Assembly: GCA_963847445.1 (NCBI GenBank)
Contig: CAWJZV010000016.1
Span: 1 to 64,000, forward strand
Length of the DNA: 64,000 bases
Direction: 5' to 3'
From: an uncultured delta proteobacterium
Lineage (GTDB): Bacteria > Desulfobacterota > Binatia > UBA9968
The translations under genes were made by a program, and so were the position numbers. The stretch's first letter is position 1; every line of letters starts with the position of its first letter. This document shows positions 36,764 through 45,955 of the stretch, one piece after another. The notes beneath the pieces are model-generated. The model saw only the letters and a list, made by a program, of their open reading frames with translations, ran no database searches and was not told the origin of the DNA.

Positions 36764-37550
36764 CTAGCCGACGATCGCTTTGACCTTGGCTTGCGCTTCC
36801 AGGCCCTTCTCTTTCATCAGCGGCAGATAATTCGCATTAAACCATTTCTCCAGCGCTTCGCTGTAGGCGCGGCGCTCGCGCAACCGGTCGTACCACTCGG
36901 GAATGTGCGGACGCTTGTCCCAGAGAAATTGCAATTGTAGGTGGTCGAGCCGGGTGACGTACGGGGCGAACCCAATGTCGGCCAGGGAAAATTCTGTGCC
37001 GGCCAGCCATGGCGAGTCCGCTAATGTCGTTTCCATGTCGCTGAGTAGTTTATCGAAGCGTTTTATCGCTTCCGGAAAAAATCGCGACTCAACTCCTTTG
37101 GTAACATTCTCCCAGCTTTTTTCTCGTTTCACCGGATCGGGCATCTTCTTGTGAAACTCTTCGAGCGCCTCCATGCCGATGGCGAGTTTTTGATAGCGAA
37201 AGGCGATCGCCGAGCTCACCACACTGGTCGCCGCGTGCACCCCTTCGTCGAGCTGCTTGGTCCACAGCCGCATGCGCGCGCGCCCGGCGGCGTCTTTCGG
37301 CTTTAGGCGTCGGTTCGGGATAGGCGTCGTCGAGATACTCGCAGATCACCGTCGACTCGATGATCACCGTGCCGTTGTCGACCAGCGTCGGCACCACCGC
37401 GTTGGGGTTGAGCTTTAGATACTCCGGCTGCTGCTGATCGCCGGCGCGCAGATTTAAATGATGACTCTCCCAGGCGAGCTTTTTCTCAGCCAGGACAAAG
37501 CGCACTTTCTGAGCGCACACCGACATATCGTTGTGATAAAGTTCGATCAT
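36764..37550 (-). CDS. Glutathione S-transferase family protein (frameshift near 37300)
   Basis: SVCAQKVR..LKLNPNAVVPTL..ESTVICEYLDD; WLAGTEFSLADI. Confidence 0.9.
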
Positions 37551-37940: not shown

Positions 37941-39017
37941 ATGGCACCACCCCAAACCGTCGACGGCTTTCGCTTTATGCAGTTTGCTTTATGCGGGCTG
38001 CTACTCGCAATTTTTTTTGCGGCTTGTCAAGTTCACGCTCAAACTCATTTCTATAAAGATAAAACGATTACGGTTCTCGCAGCCACCAATCCCGGCGGCA
38101 CCGCCGATATGCGCATCAGAACCGTCGTTTCGGTGCTGCAAAAGCATGTTCCCGGAAATCCGACCATCGTTGTCAAGTACATGGCTGGTGGAGGCGGGCG
38201 GATGGCGGCCAACCAGCTCTACAAATCGACGGCACCGGATGGCTTGACGATGGGCGCCATGCTTTCCTCTTACATACCCGCAGCGGTGATCGGGGATCCC
38301 GGCGCCCTCTACGACATCCAGAAAATGATCTTTCTTGGAACGCCGTATAGCGGCCACCCGCATATTTTTATCAGCCGGCGAGGCGCGGGAGCGGACACAC
38401 TGGAAAAATTGCGATCCATACCCAACCTGCGCTTGGGTGCCCAGTCGGTTGGACACACGATCTATTATACCGGCCGAATGTTCGCCTATCTGATCGGCCT
38501 CAAGGAGCCAAAGTCCGTCATCGGCTATAGCGGTCCGGAGCTCGATATAGCCTTTCAAAGCGGCGAGGTGGACGCCAGGTCCAATCACCCCGACAACCCG
38601 ATTCGGCAAGGGTTGCTGGAAAAAGGTATCGTCAATGTGCACGCGATGATCGAAGTTCCCAGGGGACACAAACATCCGCATCCACGATACGCACAGTTGC
38701 CGAGTCTCGAAAGCTTCGCAAAGTCGGAGACGGAACGGAAACTTGTGGCCTTGCATCGGACCTTTCAGCTATCCGGGGCTCCGTTCGTGCTGCCGCCAGG
38801 CACGCCGAATGATCAGGTGACGATTCTTCAGCAAGCCATGCGCCGCACGTTCAATGATTCCGAGTTTCTCAAAGAGTACGAAAAAGTCGGCGACGACTCG
38901 CCGCCGCTGATGCCGGAAACGCTGACCCAGCTCATCCGGGATTTGCCGCGCAATGATGAAGTCGTCGACCTGTTCAAAAAACTCTTCGGAGCCGACCCCC
39001 TGCCGCCTCGGCCGTAA
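37941..39017 (+). CDS. Bug/TctC-like solute-binding protein
   Basis: FYKDKTITVL..PGGTAD, APDGLT, LPPGTPNDQV. Confidence 0.82.
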   Translation: MAPPQTVDGFRFMQFALCGLLLAIFFAACQVHAQTHFYKDKTITVLAATNPGGTADMRIRTVVSVLQKHVPGNPTIVVKYMAGGGGRMAANQLYKSTAPDGLTMGAMLSSYIPAAVIGDPGALYDIQKMIFLGTPYSGHPHIFISRRGAGADTLEKLRSIPNLRLGAQSVGHTIYYTGRMFAYLIGLKEPKSVIGYSGPELDIAFQSGEVDARSNHPDNPIRQGLLEKGIVNVHAMIEVPRGHKHPHPRYAQLPSLESFAKSETERKLVALHRTFQLSGAPFVLPPGTPNDQVTILQQAMRRTFNDSEFLKEYEKVGDDSPPLMPETLTQLIRDLPRNDEVVDLFKKLFGADPLPPRP

Positions 39018-39102: not shown

Positions 39103-39651
39103 TCATGAAGGCCCGGCAATCTCCTGACCGTTGTGTATCAACTTGCCAGCAACCGGCACGGGATTTTTCAGCGAGTTGATTGTGTGGCAGCCCATCTCAA
39201 TCAATTGCAGCATTTCTTGCACCTTCTCAGACGGCGCCGGACTTTGGATTTTGAAAATGTACGTCAGCTCCTTGCAGCCCGGCGAAACATCCGCCAGCAA
39301 AAGTTTGCCGCGCGTATCGTAAGTCATGCGAATATCCATCTCGGCGTCCTCGATCTCGATGTCCAGCTGTGACGCGTACCGCGCCAATTGGCTGAACATT
39401 CAAAACCCCGTCGCCGCGACGAAGTACTGCAACGGCGATGGCGCCTGGCCGCCGCCCTTGCGCGACTTCGCCTCGTCGCACTGGATGGTGTATTCGCCGA
39501 TTCGCGCCTCTTTCAACTGGCCTTCGATAAGCCGAATCACTGCGCGGGTGGTCGTGGTATATCCTTCCGGCCCTTGCTTCGCGCGCTCTTGCTGCTCGCG
39601 ATGCACTTCGCGAAACGCGTCCCGGTCGATCTTACTTTCAGTCGTAGCCAT
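39103..39651 (-). CDS. OsmC-like selenoprotein (182 aa, predicted Sec84 at TGA 39400-39402)
   Basis: DEAKSRKGGGQAPSPLQYFVAATGF-TGA-MFSQ; TGA is at the conserved first Cys of OsmC/Ohr; second Cys retained in MGCHT; both halves in frame; hairpin follows. Confidence 0.88.
39359..39399 (-). promoter_or_regulatory. Putative SECIS element (OsmC-like gene)
   Basis: ATGTTCAGC/GCTGGACAT lower stem; TGGCGCG-GTA-CGCGTCA upper stem directly after the TGA. Confidence 0.75.
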
Positions 39652-39709
39652 AAAGTGCTTCCTCTATCAGTCCCTCTGGTTAAATTTCCACGAACAAAAA
39701 CTGAGTTGA

Positions 39710-40270
39710 TTAACCGCGCAGAAAATCATCGCCTTTGATCCCGGTGGCGTCGGCCATGCGGTCGTTAAAATTGTACAGACAGATCACGTAAACGATGTCT
39801 AAAATATCGCGGTCGTCGAAGCCGTGGGAGCGCAGCGCCTTGATATCGTCCTCGTTCGCCGTCGACGGTGCAACCGTCAGCTTGACCGCGTAATCCAACA
39901 TCGCCCGCTCTGCGGAAGATAAATTCAACTTTGTGTAATCGTGCTTAATTCCTTCGACCAAAGGATCGTCGTTCGATTCGGTACGGAGAGCCTCTCCGTG
40001 CGCGGTCATTCAATAGCTGCAGTGATTGGTCGCCGACACCACCGTTGCGATCATCTCGCGTTGGCGGCGCGTGATGCGCGATTCGCCGCGCATAATCGAC
40101 ACGTCGAGCGCGCGCCAGGCGGCGAGGTTGTCGGGATTGAGGCTTTGCACCTGGCGGATCATGGAAACTTTGCCGCGCTCCGCCGATGGGCCGGAGCCCG
40201 ACTCGTAAATCTCCTTGAGCTTGCCGGTCGCCTCGCCCGGCGGCACTGTTTTGATATAGGGCATGGTCAC
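39710..40270 (-). CDS. AhpD/CMD-like selenoprotein A (186 aa, CxxU; TGA 40010-40012)
   Basis: REMIATVVSATNHCSY-TGA-MTAH gives C-x-x-U-x3-H; the C-terminal half (AMLDYAVKLT..LRSHGFDD..YNFNDRMAD) is in frame. Confidence 0.9.
39983..39999 (-). promoter_or_regulatory. Putative SECIS element (AhpD-like A)
   Basis: ACGGAGA-GGC-TCTCCGT, starting 10 nt after the TGA. Confidence 0.75.
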
Positions 40271-40476
40271 TCCTTCTGCCCGGCCACGGCCCGACGCGCT
40301 TGCTTCTCCGACAAGACATGTCTGACCGCTTCGACGATTTCATACCGATAGCTGGCTCGGTCCGGATTGGCGCGCAGCATGTCGACAATCTTTTGCGCCT
40401 CGGCCTGCGAGTAAAACAAGCCGACGGTGCTGACAGCGCCACCGGGACCGATTTCGTTGACGTAAAGTTTTTCCAT
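40267..40476 (-). CDS. Small hypothetical protein (69 aa) in the selenoprotein operon
   Basis: AAAGGTGA RBS; overlaps the next gene by 4 nt (GTGA). Confidence 0.6.
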   Translation of the reverse strand: MEKLYVNEIGPGGAVSTVGLFYSQAEAQKIVDMLRANPDRASYRYEIVEAVRHVLSEKQARRAVAGQKE

Positions 40477-40546
40477 CGATCACCTTTCCGAACTTCGCGC
40501 CTTTGCGCCTTTGCGAGAGATATTCGTTTCTGGTGACCCATTCATG

Positions 40547-41453
40547 CTAATAGGTTTTCGGCGTTTTGTAGCCGACTTGCTTGCGCTCTTTCATGAACGC
40601 CTTATAGGTTTCGGGATGAGACTTCACGATATACGGACACGCGTCGACGCAGAGATGACAGTACTCTTCGCGCAGTCGCGAGTAGGGGTAGCACTTCTCC
40701 AGATCGATCAGCCAGCGCTTGATGCCCATGGGTCATGACGTGATCCTGTGGAATCGCGTCGCCCGGGCAGTTGCGCTGGCAGACGTTGCAGTTCATGCAG
40801 AAGTCCTGCACGCCGAACTCGCGCGGCTGATCTTCCAGCAGCGGCAAATCAGTGGTCACGAAACCTGGACGAAAGCTCGCGCCGTACTTTTCGTTGATCA
40901 AGCTACCGTGGCGACCGAGCTCGCCGAAACCGACTTGATAGAAAATCGGAATCGCCTGAACCTCGCTGGCGCCGTTATGGTGCGCGATCGCTGGATAGCC
41001 CATCTCGCGCACGTAGGCCGCTAGCGCCGTCGCGATCTCGGTGCACTTCGCGTAGGTTCGCATCGCTTCTTCCTCGACAGCGTCGGGCCCCTGAGTAACC
41101 TTTTCATAATCCTCCGCGACGCAACAAGCGATTACGAACTCATGCGGCACTTCCGAGCCGAGATCGATCATATGCGGCTGCAAGCGGCAGACACCGACCA
41201 TATTGGCGCCCAATTCCGTCGCCTTCGCTTTGATCTGCGCGGTCATCGCCGCCGGATCGCTGACCGTTACCCGCTGCGGATTAACGGGACCGTCGCGATA
41301 AGGCGCCAGTTTCACCCAACTGGCGCGATAAGCTTGAATGGTCGGCTTCACCGCCGCGTAGTGGCGCGACTCCGTCGCCCCCGTGGCATGAACCATTTCG
41401 GCTAATACCGGGTCAGCCATGCCCTGCTCTCTTCGAGGCGTTATCCCACGCAT
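40547..41453 (-). CDS. Short reductive dehalogenase/QueG-like cobalamin and 2x[4Fe-4S] protein (frameshift near 40728)
   Basis: IKAKATELGANMVGV, LAAYVREMGYPA, GFGELGRHGSLI..VTTDLPL, FCMNCNVCQRNCP and KC-x10-CHLCVDACP; no Tat signal and no rdhB anchor gene. Confidence 0.82.
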
Positions 41454-41501
41454 TACATCGTCCTCCTATTCAATCGGCTCCCCATGTTGCATTGATCCCG
41501 C

Positions 41502-41945
41502 TTAGCGCGGCGCTACGCCGAAAGCCGCCGCCATGCGAATCGCGTAATTGTGATAAGCGATCGTAGTGGCGACTAACAATACTTCACTGTCGCTAAAACC
41601 TACCGCTCGCAACTCGTCGACATCGCGCTTGCGCACCGAAGCCTCGTCGATAGTGCCTTTCTCCGTATAGGCCAGCACCGCCTGCTCCGCAGCCGTGAGC
41701 GAGAGCGCGCGCCAATCGCTTGCGGCCTGGGCGGCGAATGGTTGATCTAGCGGGCCGCGCAAGGCTTCGACGAAACCCTGGCAACGCAAGCAGCCGGCAA
41801 CCACAATGCCGATCAAGCTGTACAGGCGCGGCGTCAATTGTTCGACGAGCAGGCGGCGCATGGCAGTGTCCGCTTCGAGCGCGCCGGGCGCCGCGCTGAG
41901 CAGATCCTCAATCCCTTTACCTGCGACCATCCGCAGGCGGCTCAT
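41502..41945 (-). CDS. AhpD-like paralog without the Sec position
   Basis: C-terminal DWRALSLTAAEQAVLAYTEK..LRAVGFSD..YHNYAIRM matches its neighbours; motif region reads VVAGCLRCQGF. Confidence 0.75.
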   Translation of the reverse strand: MSRLRMVAGKGIEDLLSAAPGALEADTAMRRLLVEQLTPRLYSLIGIVVAGCLRCQGFVEALRGPLDQPFAAQAASDWRALSLTAAEQAVLAYTEKGTIDEASVRKRDVDELRAVGFSDSEVLLVATTIAYHNYAIRMAAAFGVAPR

Positions 41946-42011
41946 GGGTCATCCTCGTAGAGCGAAGTCTGCAGCTGTTCGCGAGTCACGCCGAAGGCTT
42001 GCAAAATTTCC

Positions 42012-42590
42012 TCAGGGAAAGTCGAACTTCTCTTCCTCGACGCCGAGCAAATCGGCGATGCGGTCTACCCAGTTTCGATAACCGGCGCCCAGACCGATGG
42101 AAAGAATTTGCTCGTCGCTAAAGCCCGCCTGGCGCAGCGCTTCGATATCGGCGTCGGTGATTTGGCTCGGCGTCACGGTAAACTTCTCGGTAAACGCCAG
42201 CATCGCTTTCTCCTGATCGTCCAATTCGGCGTCACGCCAGTTGGAGATCACCTTGGCGACTTCCTCCACCGCCATCTTGCCGTCGACACGGAGAAACTCC
42301 CCGTGACCGATGCCTCAAAACCGGCAACCGCTCAGCGCCGCAACCTGGGTGGCGATAAGCTCTTCCTTGCGCCGGCCCAAACCGGAATTACCGGGCCGAT
42401 AAATGCCCTTGTCGAAGCCGACCCGAGCCTCGAGCAGCTCCGGGCATAGGCTGAAGATGATCACGATGGGCGGCAGCTTGTCTCCTCGCCGCTGCCGCAC
42501 CGATGGGCTCAACCTGGCGAGGGTCCGATCATAAACATTTTTGAGTTCGCCCGTGGCTTCGTCTTCGGCGATAACTTTAATGAAACTCAT
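42012..42590 (-). CDS. AhpD/CMD-like selenoprotein B (192 aa, CxxU; TGA 42315-42317)
   Basis: KEELIATQVAALSGCRF-TGA-GIGHGEFLR continues in frame into the 42012-42275 ORF. Confidence 0.9.
42287..42305 (-). promoter_or_regulatory. Putative SECIS element (AhpD-like B)
   Basis: CACGGGGA-GTT-TCTCCGTG, starting 9 nt after the TGA. Confidence 0.72.
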
Positions 42591-42617
42591 AAGTTTTGCC
42601 CTGCCTGCAGATTTGAA

Positions 42618-42651
42618 TTGACCTCCTACTACTAATCGTATAAGCAGTCAA
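42618..42651. promoter_or_regulatory. 34-bp operator/promoter element, copy 1
   Basis: TTGACCTCCTACTACTAATCGTATAAGCAGTCAA in a divergent intergenic region; 31/34 identical to 45177-45210. Confidence 0.8.
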
Positions 42652-42731
42652 TCCTAATTACAGTAGCGACCCATTCGGAAACTCAAGTAAGCCGAAGCCG
42701 GGACAGTCAGCAAAAAATAAGAGGAGATCCA

Positions 42732-43223
42732 ATGGCAAAACAACTCAATGCGGGAGATTTGTTTCCGGCATACCAGGTTCAGACGACAGACGGCCGAACC
42801 CTTCATCTGCCGCGCGACCTTAGCGGTGAATATTCCGTACTGATCTTCTATCGCGGCATTTGGTGACCCTACTGCCTTCGGCAGTTAGCCGACTACCAAG
42901 CACACATCGACGCTTTTAAGAACGAAAAGATCGACATCGTTGCTCTATCGGTCGATCCTCTCGACAAGGCCAAAGAAACAGTTGACAAGCTGCAGCTTAC
43001 ATTCCCCGTGGCTTACGGCCTCGAAGTGCCACGGGACGCGGACAAAGTGGGCGCGTTCTGGGAAGAGCGCAGGAAAATCCTTCACGCGACAAACTTCATC
43101 CTGGACTCGGACAAGAAAGTTTGCGACGCATCGTACAGCATCGGCCCCATCGGGCGAATCGTTGCCGTGGATGCGTTGAGCCATATCCAGTTTTTCAAGA
43201 AGAGAAAAACACAGAAAACCTAG
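42732..43223 (+). CDS. Peroxiredoxin-like (AhpC/TSA) selenoprotein A (163 aa, UxxC; TGA 42864-42866)
   Basis: GAGGAG RBS; MAKQLNAGDLFP..VLIFYRGIW-TGA-PYCLRQL..VALSVD; the ORF track misses the N-terminal half. Confidence 0.9.
42878..42892 (+). promoter_or_regulatory. Putative SECIS element (Prx-like A)
   Basis: TCGGC-AGTTA-GCCGA, starting 11 nt after the TGA; a competing hairpin ACTGCC-TTC-GGCAGT is also possible. Confidence 0.6.
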
Positions 43224-43309
43224 TTCGGGGAACCTATCGGCGTGGATGATCGTTATTGCGCATACCGACTCGATATAGCGGATCGCCATATTTGACAGAA
43301 GGAGGGTTT

Positions 43310-43951
43310 ATGAAACGAAACCCACATTCCCGGTCCGGCACACGCTCGATTTCGAATCTGCGAATTCGCTACGCCGTAGTCGTCGTATGCGGCTTTCTTG
43401 GTCTGTTTGCCTCCCTCGCCAATGCTCAATTGGGTCCTAAAGACGGCGCAAACCTAACACCCACGGATCTAGAGCGAGTCAAGGTCGGCGACACGGCACC
43501 GGATTTTACGCTTGAGAATATGGATGGCCTGAAAATCACCCTATCGGACGTCTACCGTAGCAAAAAAGTGGTTCTGGTGTTCTATCGCGGTCAATGGTGA
43601 CCCTACTGCACACAACAGCTCGGCGAGCTGAAAGGCCTGTTAAGTCCAGACGAAAAGAATCTGGTTCAGCTACTTGCGGTGAGTGTCGACAGTCACGACG
43701 ATTCCAAAAAGTTTGTGCAAAAACTCAAGGAGCGATTTGCCGGCGATCTCGACTTTCCGCTTCTCGAGGACAGAGGCCACAAGGTGATCAACCGCTATGG
43801 CATTTTCAATCCGAGCAGCAAAGGCTGGCCCCACCCGGCGACTTATGTCATCGATACCAAGGGAGTCGTCCGTTGGCGCGTTGTCGAAACCGATTACAAG
43901 AAACGGCCCACCAACGCGCAAATTCTTGAGGCGATCAGAAGATTGCCGTAG
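43310..43951 (+). CDS. Peroxiredoxin-like selenoprotein B with signal peptide (213 aa, UxxC; TGA 43598-43600)
   Basis: GGAGG RBS; VGDTAPDFTL..VVLVFYRGQW-TGA-PYCTQQL..LAVSVD..PATYVID.KGVVRW. Confidence 0.92.
43616..43630 (+). promoter_or_regulatory. Putative SECIS element (Prx-like B)
   Basis: CAGCTC-GGC-GAGCTG, starting 15 nt after the TGA. Confidence 0.72.
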
Positions 43952-43983
43952 CCGCTTTCGACGAGCGGCAGCGATTGAACAGC

Positions 43984-44655
43984 TTAACGAACTTTCCACC
44001 GATCTGCGGGCATCGCGACACCGCGCTCCTCTGCCAACTTCGCGGCGCGCTCCGCACCGGCACGGGCGCGCTGAATCTGCCAATCGGCAACTTCCAAACC
44101 CAGCCCGTCGACCACCCGCACGCGAAAATTGAAATAGGCACAGACGTGCACGATATCGAGGATGTCGCGGTCATCCCAGCCCTTGTCACGTAGGCCCTGT
44201 ACGTCTTGCTCGCACATGTTGCTCGGCGTCAGCGTGAGTTTTTCGGCGAACTCCAACATGGCATATTCCGCAAGGGTCAAATTCATTTCGCGCCAAGCAT
44301 CTTTGACTTGCTCCACCGATAAATCATCGCCGCCTTCCTGACGCAGAAACTCTGCGTGAGCGACGGTTCAAAACCGGCAATGCAGCGTTGCTGCGGTCAC
44401 CGTGGCGATCATCTCGCGCTGCGCAGTCGTCAATCGCGACTCACCGCGCATAATCTCCCACATGAGCTCGGCGGTGTGCCACATCGCTTTGGGATTGAGA
44501 CTGTGCAGCATTGGCGGGCTAATCGGTGCGCCACCGTAACCGGCGTCGCGATCTTGGTTGATCTTTTCGCCTCGGCGCTGCTCGCGGATCTTTCGATATA
44601 CTTCTTTCAATTCCCCGTGCGCGTCATGTTCCGGAATAATCTTGATCCACGGCAT
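43984..44655 (-). CDS. AhpD/CMD-like selenoprotein C (223 aa, CxxU; TGA 44368-44370)
   Basis: MPWIKIIPE..REMIATVTAATLHCRF-TGA-TVAHAEFLR continues in frame into AMLEFAEKLT..YFNFRVRVVDGLG. Confidence 0.9.
44341..44357 (-). promoter_or_regulatory. Putative SECIS element (AhpD-like C)
   Basis: ACGCAGA-GTT-TCTGCGT, starting 10 nt after the TGA; lower stem CCGTC/GGCGG. Confidence 0.78.
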
Positions 44656-44722
44656 CGCCGTTCCTCCATATTCGCCGGTGGCGCCCCTGAATCGAGGGCC
44701 GGCATCGATGCGAGCGGTCGAC

Positions 44723-45150
44723 TTAGCGCCGCCCCTGGCCAAACAACAAGGCTTTTGACTCCTCGTTCACCGTCGGCTCGGGTGCCGAGATCGATCCGGT
44801 CAGCTCGATCTGGTAAATCATATCGGTGAACACCCGAGCGTCGCGGTCGTGTGCGCTCGCGCGACCATTTTGATGCTGTCGACCGGCATGGGTTTCTCTT
44901 TCAAGACGTTGGCATACTGCATCATCAGGCAGGAAGCCGCGCCGGTAACGAAATAACCGAGCGGAGTCGGCCCCGACCCTTTGCCGCCGCGGATCTCGGG
45001 CTCATCGATCATCAGCTGGAATGCTTTTTCCTCGGTCTTGTAAGTCGCCTCGAACGTTTTGTGCTCCTGGCGCGCGATGTCGACGCGCACCGTCCGATGG
45101 GCCGGCTCGCCAATTTGCTCGTTGGACCTTCTGCCATGATCACCTTCCAT
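44723..45150 (-). CDS. OsmC-like protein, Cys form (frameshifted, C-terminus apparently damaged)
   Basis: IDEPEIRGGKGSGPTPLGYFVTGAASCLMMQ; frame change near 44850 to RVFTDMIYQIELTG; second Cys not found. Confidence 0.7.
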
Positions 45151-45176
45151 TAGAATTATTCATCGCGTCCGCGAGT

Positions 45177-45210
45177 TTGACCTCCTACTACTAAACATAT
45201 AAGTAGTCAA
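45177..45210. promoter_or_regulatory. 34-bp operator/promoter element, copy 2
   Basis: TTGACCTCCTACTACTAAACATATAAGTAGTCAA, ending 1 nt before the gntR ATG. Confidence 0.8.
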
Positions 45211-45211
45211 C

Positions 45212-45955
45212 ATGCGCCTCGTTAAGCGATCCGGCTCTCCCCTACCGCTCTATTTCAAGATCATGACCGAGATCCGTGACAACATTCTTTCCGGCGCGTG
45301 GAATGACGGCTTTCAACTTCCCGGTGAAGCGGATCTCGCCCGCCGCCGCGGCGTCAGCGTCATCACCGTGCGCCAAGCGTTAGGCCAACTGGCTCACGAA
45401 GGGCTGGTCCGGCGCGAGCGAGCCAGGGGGACCTACGTCAGCTGGAGCGGACCGGTCAATCAGGCGATCAATTTAGAAATCGAAGCCGACAACCTGGTCA
45501 CACTGAATCCGGCGGGCACAAGCTTTAAGCTTCTCCGCACGGAACAGATCGACGCCCCGGCCAACCTTCGCGGCGACTTCAAGTTATTAGCTGGGGAACG
45601 CATAACCCGCATGACGCGCGTCCGTATGGCGCATCGCGAACCGCTTGCCTTCGTCTATTCCGACGTTCCGACCCGCATCGCGGCAACACTGCCACAAAAA
45701 AGCCTGCTTAAACTGCCGCTTTCCAGCGTCATCGAAAAGGCTTTGGCGATCCGCATCACGGACGTGAAACACCTCGTCGGAGCGAAGCTCGCCGACGAGG
45801 AAGTAGCAGCCAACCTGAACATACCGCCCGGCTCGCCGGTACTTTTCGTCGAGCGCAACTATTTCTACAAGAACGATCTGCTCTTGCGCACCGTGGGTTT
45901 CTACCGCAGCGATCTGTTCCGCTATGAAATCAAATTAAAAACCAGCCGCCGCTAG
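45212..45955 (+). CDS. GntR-family (HutC/UTRA) transcriptional regulator
   Basis: PLYFKI..LPGEADLARRRGVSVITVRQAL..GLVRRERARGTYV; C-terminal UTRA-like domain (YRSDLFRY). Confidence 0.92.
   Translation: MRLVKRSGSPLPLYFKIMTEIRDNILSGAWNDGFQLPGEADLARRRGVSVITVRQALGQLAHEGLVRRERARGTYVSWSGPVNQAINLEIEADNLVTLNPAGTSFKLLRTEQIDAPANLRGDFKLLAGERITRMTRVRMAHREPLAFVYSDVPTRIAATLPQKSLLKLPLSSVIEKALAIRITDVKHLVGAKLADEEVAANLNIPPGSPVLFVERNYFYKNDLLLRTVGFYRSDLFRYEIKLKTSRR

Follow-up and report, generated by a model that had tools for sequence, protein, structure and literature searches.

The window analyzed here is a 64,000-nt stretch (positions 1 to 64,000 of the forward strand of contig CAWJZV010000016.1, our contig C16) from the 7.19-Mb, 48-contig metagenome-assembled genome (MAG) of an uncultured delta proteobacterium of the class Binatia (UBA9968; assembly GCA_963847445.1, here G000), which is 91.8% complete with 6.9% contamination. 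Between positions 39103 and 44655 it contains six genes, each with a single in-frame TGA at the position of a catalytic cysteine, which on the evidence of sequence conservation are almost certainly real selenoprotein genes of families with known selenocysteine (Sec, U) forms. The best explanation of the locus, to which we give a probability of roughly 0.6, is that the six products are genuine Sec proteins, encoded in four transcription units placed around two copies of a 34-nt promoter/operator-like element, controlled by a GntR-type regulator and working as an OsmC/Prx/AhpD redox relay. As such, the cluster would be a multi-selenoprotein regulon that draws on known Sec families and has a candidate operator. 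The six TGA positions and their motifs had been pointed out in an initial annotation of the window, and all were recovered when the sequence was read again.

The six TGA-containing genes

The set consists of one OsmC-like gene, three AhpD-like genes (TIGR01926), and two peroxiredoxin (Prx)-like genes of the UxxC type. The OsmC-like gene (39103–39651, minus strand) carries U84 (39400–39402) in a GF-U motif and a second cysteine, C154. Its read-through product scores 146.4 bits against NF041052 (OsmC_like_Se, "OsmC-related (seleno)protein"; cut-off 95), and U84 and C154 align with the conserved Cys and the second Cys of PDB 3cje, respectively, so that both the score and the two conserved Cys positions place it in this family. 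The three AhpD-like proteins, AhpD1 (39710–40264, minus strand; CSY-U-MTAH, U at 40010–40012; 142.5 bits), AhpD2 (42012–42590, minus strand; CRF-U-GIGH, U at 42315–42317; 97.1 bits), and AhpD3 (43984–44655, minus strand; CRF-U-TVAH, U at 44368–44370; 118.3 bits), all score above the TIGR01926 cut-off of 81.8 bits, and contain the pattern C-x-x-C/U-x-x-x-H with the His at +4 from U; for this family, PDB 2pfx was matched at an E value of 1e-30.

Both Prx-like proteins contain the motif W-U-PYC and exceed the PF00578 cut-off of 26 bits: Prx1 (42732–43223, plus strand; U at 42864–42866) with 72.1 bits and Prx2 (43310–43951, plus strand; U at 43598–43600) with 120.8 bits. Neither reached an equivalog cut-off in the NCBIfam search. 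In an alignment of Prx2 with the BCP structure 2cx3, U falls on the Ser/Thr of TxxC and C100 on the peroxidatic Cys, which departs from the classical peroxiredoxin pattern PxxxT/SxxC. Because Sec takes the Thr/Ser position of TxxC and the Cys stays, the pair is by its sequence of the "Prx-like 1, UxxC" type in the Global Ocean Sampling (GOS) survey, as that type is tabulated there, and not of the classical peroxiredoxin type. By eye, the N-terminus of Prx2 resembles a signal peptide.

Evidence for selenocysteine at the TGA codons

For comparison, 64 related loci (L051–L114) were fetched via the RdhA-like protein encoded in the cluster. Among the homolog matches in these loci that cover the U column, TGA is found in 69 of 71; the remaining two, a "TGC" in L081 and a "GCC" in L055, turned out to be shifted or secondary alignments and not Cys orthologs. 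All 28 high-identity ortholog matches over this column in 10 same-genus loci have TGA, as do all unique orthologs of the OsmC-like gene (11/11), AhpD1 (20/20), AhpD2 (9/9), Prx1 (7/7), and Prx2 (7/7), and all 12 true orthologs of AhpD3. With synonymous sites near saturation (pS 0.5–0.8), dN/dS is 0.03–0.11 both upstream and downstream of the TGA (for the upstream half of Prx2, with one ortholog, the ratio was not computable); both halves are therefore seen to be translated in one frame. In 10 of 11 aligned database homologs (40–51% identity), Cys occupies the U column, while the eleventh, P0009, is scrambled at this position and looks like a frame-shifted gene call. The in-frame UGA is thus located where homologs have a redox Cys, and together with both flanks it is conserved in orthologs under purifying selection, which bears out the assignment of these genes to protein families with recognized Sec forms. 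In the database, the nearest relatives (75–86% identity) span only 45–81% of the query, as expected if gene callers stop at the TGA; standard annotation does fragment these genes, as had been predicted. AhpD1 homologs (E 1e-20) were detected in 26 of 101 sampled genomes of the class, and of the 33 match rows, 24 have one TGA and nine have none.

Bacterial selenocysteine insertion sequence (SECIS) elements follow rules of distance from the UGA and of loop composition, and stem-loops that resemble them are predicted directly 3' of the UGA in all six genes. Counted with the UGA, they extend over 39357–39402 in the OsmC-like gene (minus strand; -23.1 kcal/mol, z -2.19), 39979–40012 in AhpD1 (minus strand; core CACGGAGAGGCTCTCCGT), 42279–42317 in AhpD2 (minus strand; -24.7 kcal/mol, z -2.27), 42864–42888 in Prx1 (plus strand; a weak fold alone, z -0.77), 43598–43630 in Prx2 (plus strand; CAGCTC-GGC-GAGCTG), and 44330–44370 in AhpD3 (minus strand; from fold prediction). 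The AhpD1 core is near-invariant, being identical in 18 of 20 unique orthologs and one base off in the other two. The 12 codons that follow U were compared for synonymous diversity with every other 12-codon window of the same gene, and no other window was as low in Prx1 (0/94), Prx2 (0/121), AhpD1 (0/148), AhpD2 (0/154), or AhpD3 (0/184); in the OsmC-like gene the value after U was 0.219 versus 0.378 elsewhere, with nine of 144 other windows as low. A hairpin combined with suppressed synonymous change is what a bacterial SECIS overlapping coding sequence should leave behind, and these stretches are accordingly regarded as putative SECIS elements. The view that the TGAs are plain stops of split genes or pseudogenes, or else sequencing errors, could appeal to the many +1 insertion errors in the assembly, but is for practical purposes refuted by the retention of TGA across independent assemblies, the purifying selection on two halves in one frame, the Cys at the U position in homologs, the hairpin with suppressed synonymous change behind each TGA, and the fact that all six interruptions are TGA, with no TAA or TAG and no change of frame.

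Candidate operator, GntR regulator, and distribution of the cluster

The cluster genes occupy four transcription units, one of which encodes a regulator of the GntR/HutC type (45212–45955, plus strand) with an N-terminal GntR helix-turn-helix (HTH) domain (PF00392, 61.1 bits) and a C-terminal UTRA effector domain (PF07702, 71.2 bits). Two copies of a palindromic 34-nt element, 91% identical to each other, were found in the divergent intergenic regions of the cluster: copy 1 (42618–42651, plus strand) between AhpD2 and Prx1, and copy 2 (45177–45210, plus strand) between the unit of AhpD3 and an OsmC-like remnant on one side and the GntR gene on the other, where it ends 1 nt before the GntR ATG. 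The element has a -35-like TTGACC and a -10-like TATAAG, 15 nt apart, and inverted ends (TTGAC/GTCAA). With up to eight mismatches allowed, the 7.19-Mb genome has no copy besides these two, and since they sit in both divergent regions, all four transcription units adjoin one. A GntR homolog is present in eight of the 64 related loci, and these eight together with L055 make up the nine related loci in which the element occurs, each time as a single copy. In the related genomes G026 and G030, it lies in the sole divergent region, between a Prx1-GntR unit and a long unit with the order GST/OsmC-remnant-AhpD3-AhpD2-CMD-RdhA-small-AhpD1-OsmC (GST, glutathione S-transferase). We take the element as a shared promoter with a GntR operator, and the HutC-type regulator probably controls the four units. 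The argument for one regulon is that within the genome the element is confined to the cluster and that it recurs with the GntR gene in related loci, which also gives substance to the earlier suggestion that the cluster has a regulator of its own. Across the window, a generic promoter/terminator scan listed no more sites than were found in shuffled sequences, and no Rfam families or tRNAs were detected in it.

Four further loci of this Binatia genus carry clusters of TGA-containing genes, with five (L051), six (L053 and L061), and seven (L067) such genes, which shows the conserved synteny that the initial annotation had proposed to look for. The cluster is rare, not unprecedented, and belongs to one group of uncultured soil/sediment bacteria. 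The word island, used in its first designation, does not apply to it if a mobile element is meant: in the composition profile GC is ordinary with no sign of a foreign island, and the flanks are common to relatives.

The RdhA-like gene and its predicted partner

Upstream of AhpD1 in the largest operon, we identified a gene for an RdhA/NpRdhA-like Fe-S protein, presumably B12-binding (40547–41453, minus strand). Relative to intact orthologs it has an additional G in the GGG run at 40725–40727, an insertion of the same kind as those on contig C14 described below. The homology was established with the intact ortholog P0007 (301 aa, a single domain), which matches the cobalamin-binding C-terminal half of NpRdhA (PDB 4ras) with an E value of 2.9e-51 and PceA with E values of about 1e-23 to 1e-24. 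The two Fe-S motifs, CxxCxxCxxxCP and C...CxxCxxxCP, are invariant in 26 sequences. A homologous corrinoid-binding core with two 4Fe-4S motifs assigns the protein to the RdhA/QueG superfamily, and corrinoid binding is predicted. The Tyr aligned with Y426 of NpRdhA is conserved, while the position of K488 is occupied by Arg; we take both residues to have roles in NpRdhA. The protein falls short of the cut-offs for reductive dehalogenases (TIGR02486; 119.4 vs 160.35 bits) and for QueG (40.3 vs 200), and neither an RRxFLK-type twin-arginine translocation (TAT) N-terminus in P0007 nor an adjacent RdhB/anchor gene, the marks of the respiratory type, was found. NCBIfam gave a weak generic match to the HgcB ferredoxin. 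The AlphaFold model is poor (mean predicted local distance difference test score, pLDDT, 58), and its top Foldseek matches, PceA and NpRdhA followed by QueG, echo the sequence homology only; a K488Q entry appears among these matches. Neighbours retrieved with a protein language model are widespread proteins of ~320 aa labelled "putative QueG" or ferredoxin-domain.

The RdhA-like gene is followed by a conserved ORF of 69 aa (40267–40476, minus strand) with no Pfam or NCBIfam match. A small ORF of 52–84 aa is present 3' of the RdhA-like gene in 59 of the 64 loci, mostly 5–10 nt downstream, and 48 intact adjacent pairs were counted; the pair occurs in Binatia and in one Tectomicrobia-labelled MAG. 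A model of the complex reached an ipSAE interface score of 0.87 versus 0.00 for the best control, with at least 87% of contacts agreeing between runs and a partner pLDDT of at least 77, and supports binding of the 69-aa protein by the RdhA-like protein. For calibration, 58 of 80 solved complexes attained this mark, as did two of 110 mismatched pairs; the counts hold only roughly here, our own alignments having been used. The most likely start of AhpD1 is the ATG at 40264 rather than the GTG at 40270, and because this ATG lies 2 nt past the stop of the small ORF with an AAGGAG upstream, co-expression of the two is likely. Between the RdhA-like gene and the small ORF lies a repetitive extragenic palindromic (REP)-like intergenic repeat (40485–40525) that is not part of the system; for this 35–40-nt repeat, 77 additional short matches were counted in G000, and other genomes of the genus contain many copies of it.

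Where the RdhA-like protein is at least 76% identical, 26 of 35 loci have one or more TGA-containing neighbours, and G000 has only this one close copy. Because other Binatia carry the pair without selenoprotein neighbours, the RdhA-like gene and its small ORF constitute, by this comparison, a module older than the cluster. The tie of the RdhA-like protein to the Sec proteins would thus be at operon level and genus level only, and the link is weak.

Sec-less paralogs and neighbouring genes

Two Cys-type paralogs are present within the cluster, one AhpD/CMD-like with the motif CLRC and one OsmC-like with ASC. The former (41502–41945, minus strand), with a CxxC motif, scores 48.3 bits against TIGR01926, under the cut-off, and is kept at 60–82% identity in 10 related loci. 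The latter (44723–45150, minus strand) is a frame-shifted remnant of the N-terminal part that covers only positions 3–81 of the 144 in NF041052; three-frame reading shows the change of frame, and its end consists of the last residues of a GST gene. Thus, of the Sec-less paralogs originally listed as members, the AhpD/CMD-like one is a conserved gene, while the OsmC-like copy at 44818–45150 is a truncated remnant with a GST tail. The same OsmC fragment is kept at 82–91% identity in L053, L055, and L061.

A fourth AhpD-like TGA gene (LKCSY-U-TVAHG) is located between AhpD1 and the OsmC-like gene in L042 (1845–2381), L047 (3948–4481), L048 (5134–5670), and L067, and is absent from the window. On the other side of the OsmC-like gene, the frame of a GST gene (37089–37550, minus strand) breaks after ~90 residues, while its ortholog in G026 reads over more than 250 aa; the break is probably another +1 error or marks a pseudogene. 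A TctC-like periplasmic binding-protein gene (37941–39017, plus strand; weak Pfam match) lies between this GST gene and the OsmC-like gene and is not there in G026.

Selenocysteine machinery and further Sec genes

The genome contains selA, selB, and selD as an operon (C14:191492–195726), in which selD is itself of the Sec type with its own in-frame TGA. Six single-base insertions break the operon genes in G000, and the same genes are intact in G004, G032, and G026. The flanks of the operon on C14 also contain isolated +1 insertions, about a dozen or more per aligned flank (~16 kb and ~8 kb), and because the insertions in the operon occur at this background rate, we attribute the breaks to assembly noise of uneven distribution rather than to a decaying operon. 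Over C14:170000–217000, single-base insertions relative to a related genome number ~1 per 0.6–1.4 kb, and at C34:332962–341139 the rpoB and rpoC genes are uninterrupted, being open over 1373 and 1390 codons. Assembly error thus appears to be very uneven across contigs.

At least eight further TGA genes of the same three families were identified in G000, namely four Prx genes of the TxxU type, two Prx-like ones with UxxC, and two OsmC-like genes (C15:16307–16795, C17:138722–139171, C27:94626–95015, C30:181578–182030, C4:51712–52005, C15:235774–236256, C9:70548–70949, and C46:220519–220923). This suggests a large selenoproteome and an organism that is Sec-rich in general. A crude genome scan for coding-flanked in-frame TGAs was non-discriminating (306 TGA vs 1076 TAA/TAG sites passed, and three of the six known genes were missed); it hints, as leads only, at more Sec genes in UxxC or CxxU contexts.

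Proposed function and alternative explanations

Reduction of organic hydroperoxides by Ohr/OsmC proteins and the mycobacterial AhpC/AhpD relay form the basis of the mechanism proposed here, in which substrates, electron path, and the role of the regulator are inferred; what the analysis shows is that the genes are of the Sec type and are conserved, that the element is shared, and that there is synteny. UGA replaces the nucleophilic Cys in redox proteins of the OsmC type, the AhpD type, and the Prx fold. In the OsmC-type hydroperoxide reductase, U84 would be paired with C154. By analogy, its Sec, and perhaps that of the Prx-like proteins, may attack a hydroperoxide, a disulfide, or another electrophile, and the resulting selenenylsulfide would be resolved by the neighbouring Cys, C154 in the OsmC-like protein. 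A role as selenol-thiol oxidoreductases is proposed for the UxxC proteins; one of these is probably exported and would work outside the cytoplasm. The CxxU AhpD-like selenoproteins would pass on reducing equivalents and recycle the others, as AhpD does for AhpC in mycobacteria. The GntR protein would leave the shared promoter upon ligand binding by its UTRA domain. The two-subunit RdhA-like Fe-S (presumably corrinoid) reductase would be made from within the largest operon, apparently in translational coupling with AhpD1.

Several findings weigh against this reading, and the most serious concern decoding of Sec. A tRNA-Sec gene of ~75–78 bits is present in 10 of 13 related genomes, while a search with a hidden Markov model (HMM) built from six Binatia tRNA-Sec genes found no intact tRNA-Sec, and hence no selC, in the G000 assembly; the proposed check of the Sec machinery thus succeeded for selA, selB, and selD only. 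The ancestral tRNA-Sec locus is instead split. The first 23 nt are located behind the conserved upstream flank at C4:239463–239486 and the last 28 nt ahead of the conserved downstream flank at C12:77575–77602 (the two loci L124 and L125). The 3' piece is adjoined by a gene for a tyrosine integrase, whose product has Arm-DNA-binding and Phage_integrase domains, and next comes a gene for a DUF6094 methyltransferase/helicase. A 392-nt contig of an unrelated run (X2 record 9) spans the 5' junction with four mismatches and one gap, and because this contig is independent, the junction is real DNA and not an assembly-specific misjoin. Read runs cover the junction in part; three of four have holes or loose ends and carry no evidential weight. 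Other candidates were discarded. A tRNA-SeC call by ARAGORN (C2:139122–139203) has no Rfam match, a fold no better than shuffles (z -0.34), and no tRNA features, and is considered false; neither of the two matches of a regex scan for an anticodon stem-loop with T-loop is tRNA-like. The top matches in a genome search with RF01852, in which 150 of 964 candidates were scored, are tRNA-Ser and tRNA-Leu, and an Rfam scan around the sel operon gave no match.

This strain may consequently not decode Sec at all. Sec decoding would then have been lost very recently, the tRNA-Sec having been destroyed by an integrating element, and the six genes would be freshly dead here and functional in sister species. 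The two short tRNA pieces, the adjoining integrase gene, and the bridged 5' junction fit such a loss. Against it stand the open frames of the six genes, of at least eight more Sec genes, and of the Sec-type selD, as well as the incompleteness and contamination of the assembly noted at the outset. When an element integrates into a tRNA gene, the gene is usually regenerated at the second att site, which is missing from this assembly; an intact tRNA-Sec may thus be located in the unassembled part, for example there. We consider the recent loss improbable.

The remaining points against a common redox relay concern the coherence of the cluster. The hairpins of Prx1, Prx2, AhpD1, and AhpD3 are by themselves not significantly more stable than shuffles (z -0.77 to +0.17). 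The generic promoter scan did not list the 34-nt element, with its 15-nt spacer, and at least two genomes of the same genus, G007 and G034, have no AhpD1 match at E 1e-20, so that the cluster is not universal in the genus. Gene order differs between G000 and its relatives, and the cluster is flanked by further genes for detoxification, namely GST genes or their remnants and a nitroreductase. Finally, none of the 25 more distant loci, with an RdhA-like protein below 76% identity, has a TGA-containing neighbour. The locus could on these grounds be a loose, co-regulated neighbourhood of real selenoproteins, each a lone general antioxidant, which accreted by duplication in a detoxification locus with GST and nitroreductase genes, without a common pathway and with the RdhA-like pair as a passenger. 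The variable gene order and the flanking genes are in line with this, as are the occurrence of the RdhA-like pair alone in other Binatia, as in L086 beside tmk (thymidylate kinase) and holB (DNA polymerase III delta-prime), and the scatter of at least eight further Sec genes of the same families over the genome. It is opposed by the shared, cluster-specific 34-nt element, by the tight spacing and translational coupling, and by the conservation of the set in four other loci with five to seven TGA genes. Because the element is shared and the set travels together, more than mere proximity is indicated, and a loose neighbourhood is, although a serious possibility, clearly less probable than the co-regulated relay. 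The idea of one dedicated system is therefore upheld in part: by the shared element and the joint conservation, and not by the RdhA-like module, which is older, or by the Sec genes, which also occur elsewhere in the genome. What can be claimed for the co-regulated relay has its limits in that every component family is already known, the organism is rich in Sec generally, the tie to the RdhA-like gene is weak, and this very strain may not decode Sec.

A more far-reaching version is a single GntR-controlled pathway in which the two-subunit RdhA-like corrinoid/Fe-S reductase and the relay of six selenoproteins, one of them periplasmic, act together in the reductive detoxification of one particular organic electrophile, for instance a halogenated or peroxidised aromatic. 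We regard this as rather unlikely, though somewhat less so than the loss of Sec decoding. If true, it would link B12-dependent reduction to selenol chemistry, a link which to our knowledge is not known for any RdhA-family enzyme. The six or seven Sec genes would then equal or exceed the largest selenoprotein operon described in the operon section of a 2026 review (PMC13188914).

Multi-selenoprotein operons are a recent topic, in which the six-gene SAO is a large case according to that section (PMC13188914). The present cluster, with six Sec genes here and seven in one relative, is made up of thiol-peroxidase-type families whose Sec forms await assignment of a function, and its candidate regulator and operator offer a handle on why cells pay for Sec in AhpD-like, OsmC-like, and UxxC Prx-like proteins. 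Binatia, a widespread uncultured class of soils and sediments, are shown to be Sec-rich, and annotation will systematically truncate such genes. Apart from the cluster, the RdhA-like/small-protein pair forms a conserved module that is itself uncharacterised, and the split selC locus offers a natural experiment on the fate of a large selenoproteome after an element lands in tRNA-Sec.

Comparison with known systems

The RdhA-like protein resembles the catabolic reductive dehalogenase NpRdhA (PDB 4ras/6zxu), PceA, and QueG in its homologous core, the two 4Fe-4S motifs, and the Tyr at the position of Y426. Unlike these enzymes, it is a single domain of 301 aa with neither TAT signal nor RdhB, has Arg at the position of K488, and has a predicted 69-aa partner. 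For the other families, MtAhpD and OsmC, with the roles of their catalytic residues, serve as the reference. As in the mycobacterial AhpC/AhpD relay, the AhpD-type spacing CxxCxxxH is kept, with Sec at the second Cys, and a Prx fold is encoded beside AhpD-type genes; the OsmC-like protein has the two-Cys architecture of the Ohr/OsmC organic hydroperoxide reductases. The cluster differs from both systems by having Sec for Cys, and because Sec is at the Thr/Ser position of TxxC, its Prx-like proteins look closer to CxxC oxidoreductases than to classical peroxidases.

Literature searches of main texts yielded neither an account of the cluster nor any link between Binatia and selenoproteins, so that within these searches the cluster is, as first supposed, undescribed. 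The operons covered in the 2026 review are grdAB, prdBC, frhA-frhD-hdrA (plus glpC), a Prx/SelW pair, a Prx-like/AhpD-like pair, the six-gene SAO, and Tso (PMC13188914), and its section on selenoprotein operons contains nothing like the present cluster. Similar to SAO and Tso, which are read there as pathway-level use of Sec, the cluster would be a multi-selenoprotein operon system (PMC13188914). It is set apart from them by other protein families, as judged from the accessions in the table of that review: the NCBIfam accessions named there for SaoL/B/C/P/T/X and TsoA/B/C/X/Y are absent among the matches of ten cluster proteins, apart from the weak generic HgcB ferredoxin match of the RdhA-like protein (PMC13188914). 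Knowledge of Sec forms of AhpD-like 1 and 2, OsmC-like, and Prx-like 1 (UxxC) proteins goes back to the Sargasso Sea and GOS surveys, as tabulated in PMC2398784 and PMC13188914, and the cluster proteins share the Pfam/TIGR families and the motifs CxxU, UxxC, and U-x-x-S/T listed there (PMC2398784, Table 2; PMC13188914, table). The GOS paper, as far as its account of gene context goes, also reports one read on which a Prx-like 1 and an AhpD-like 2 selenoprotein gene lie next to each other. Unlike that read, with two genes and no context, the window comes from a terrestrial genus of Binatia and holds six such genes together with a regulator, a shared candidate control element, and an RdhA-like pair.

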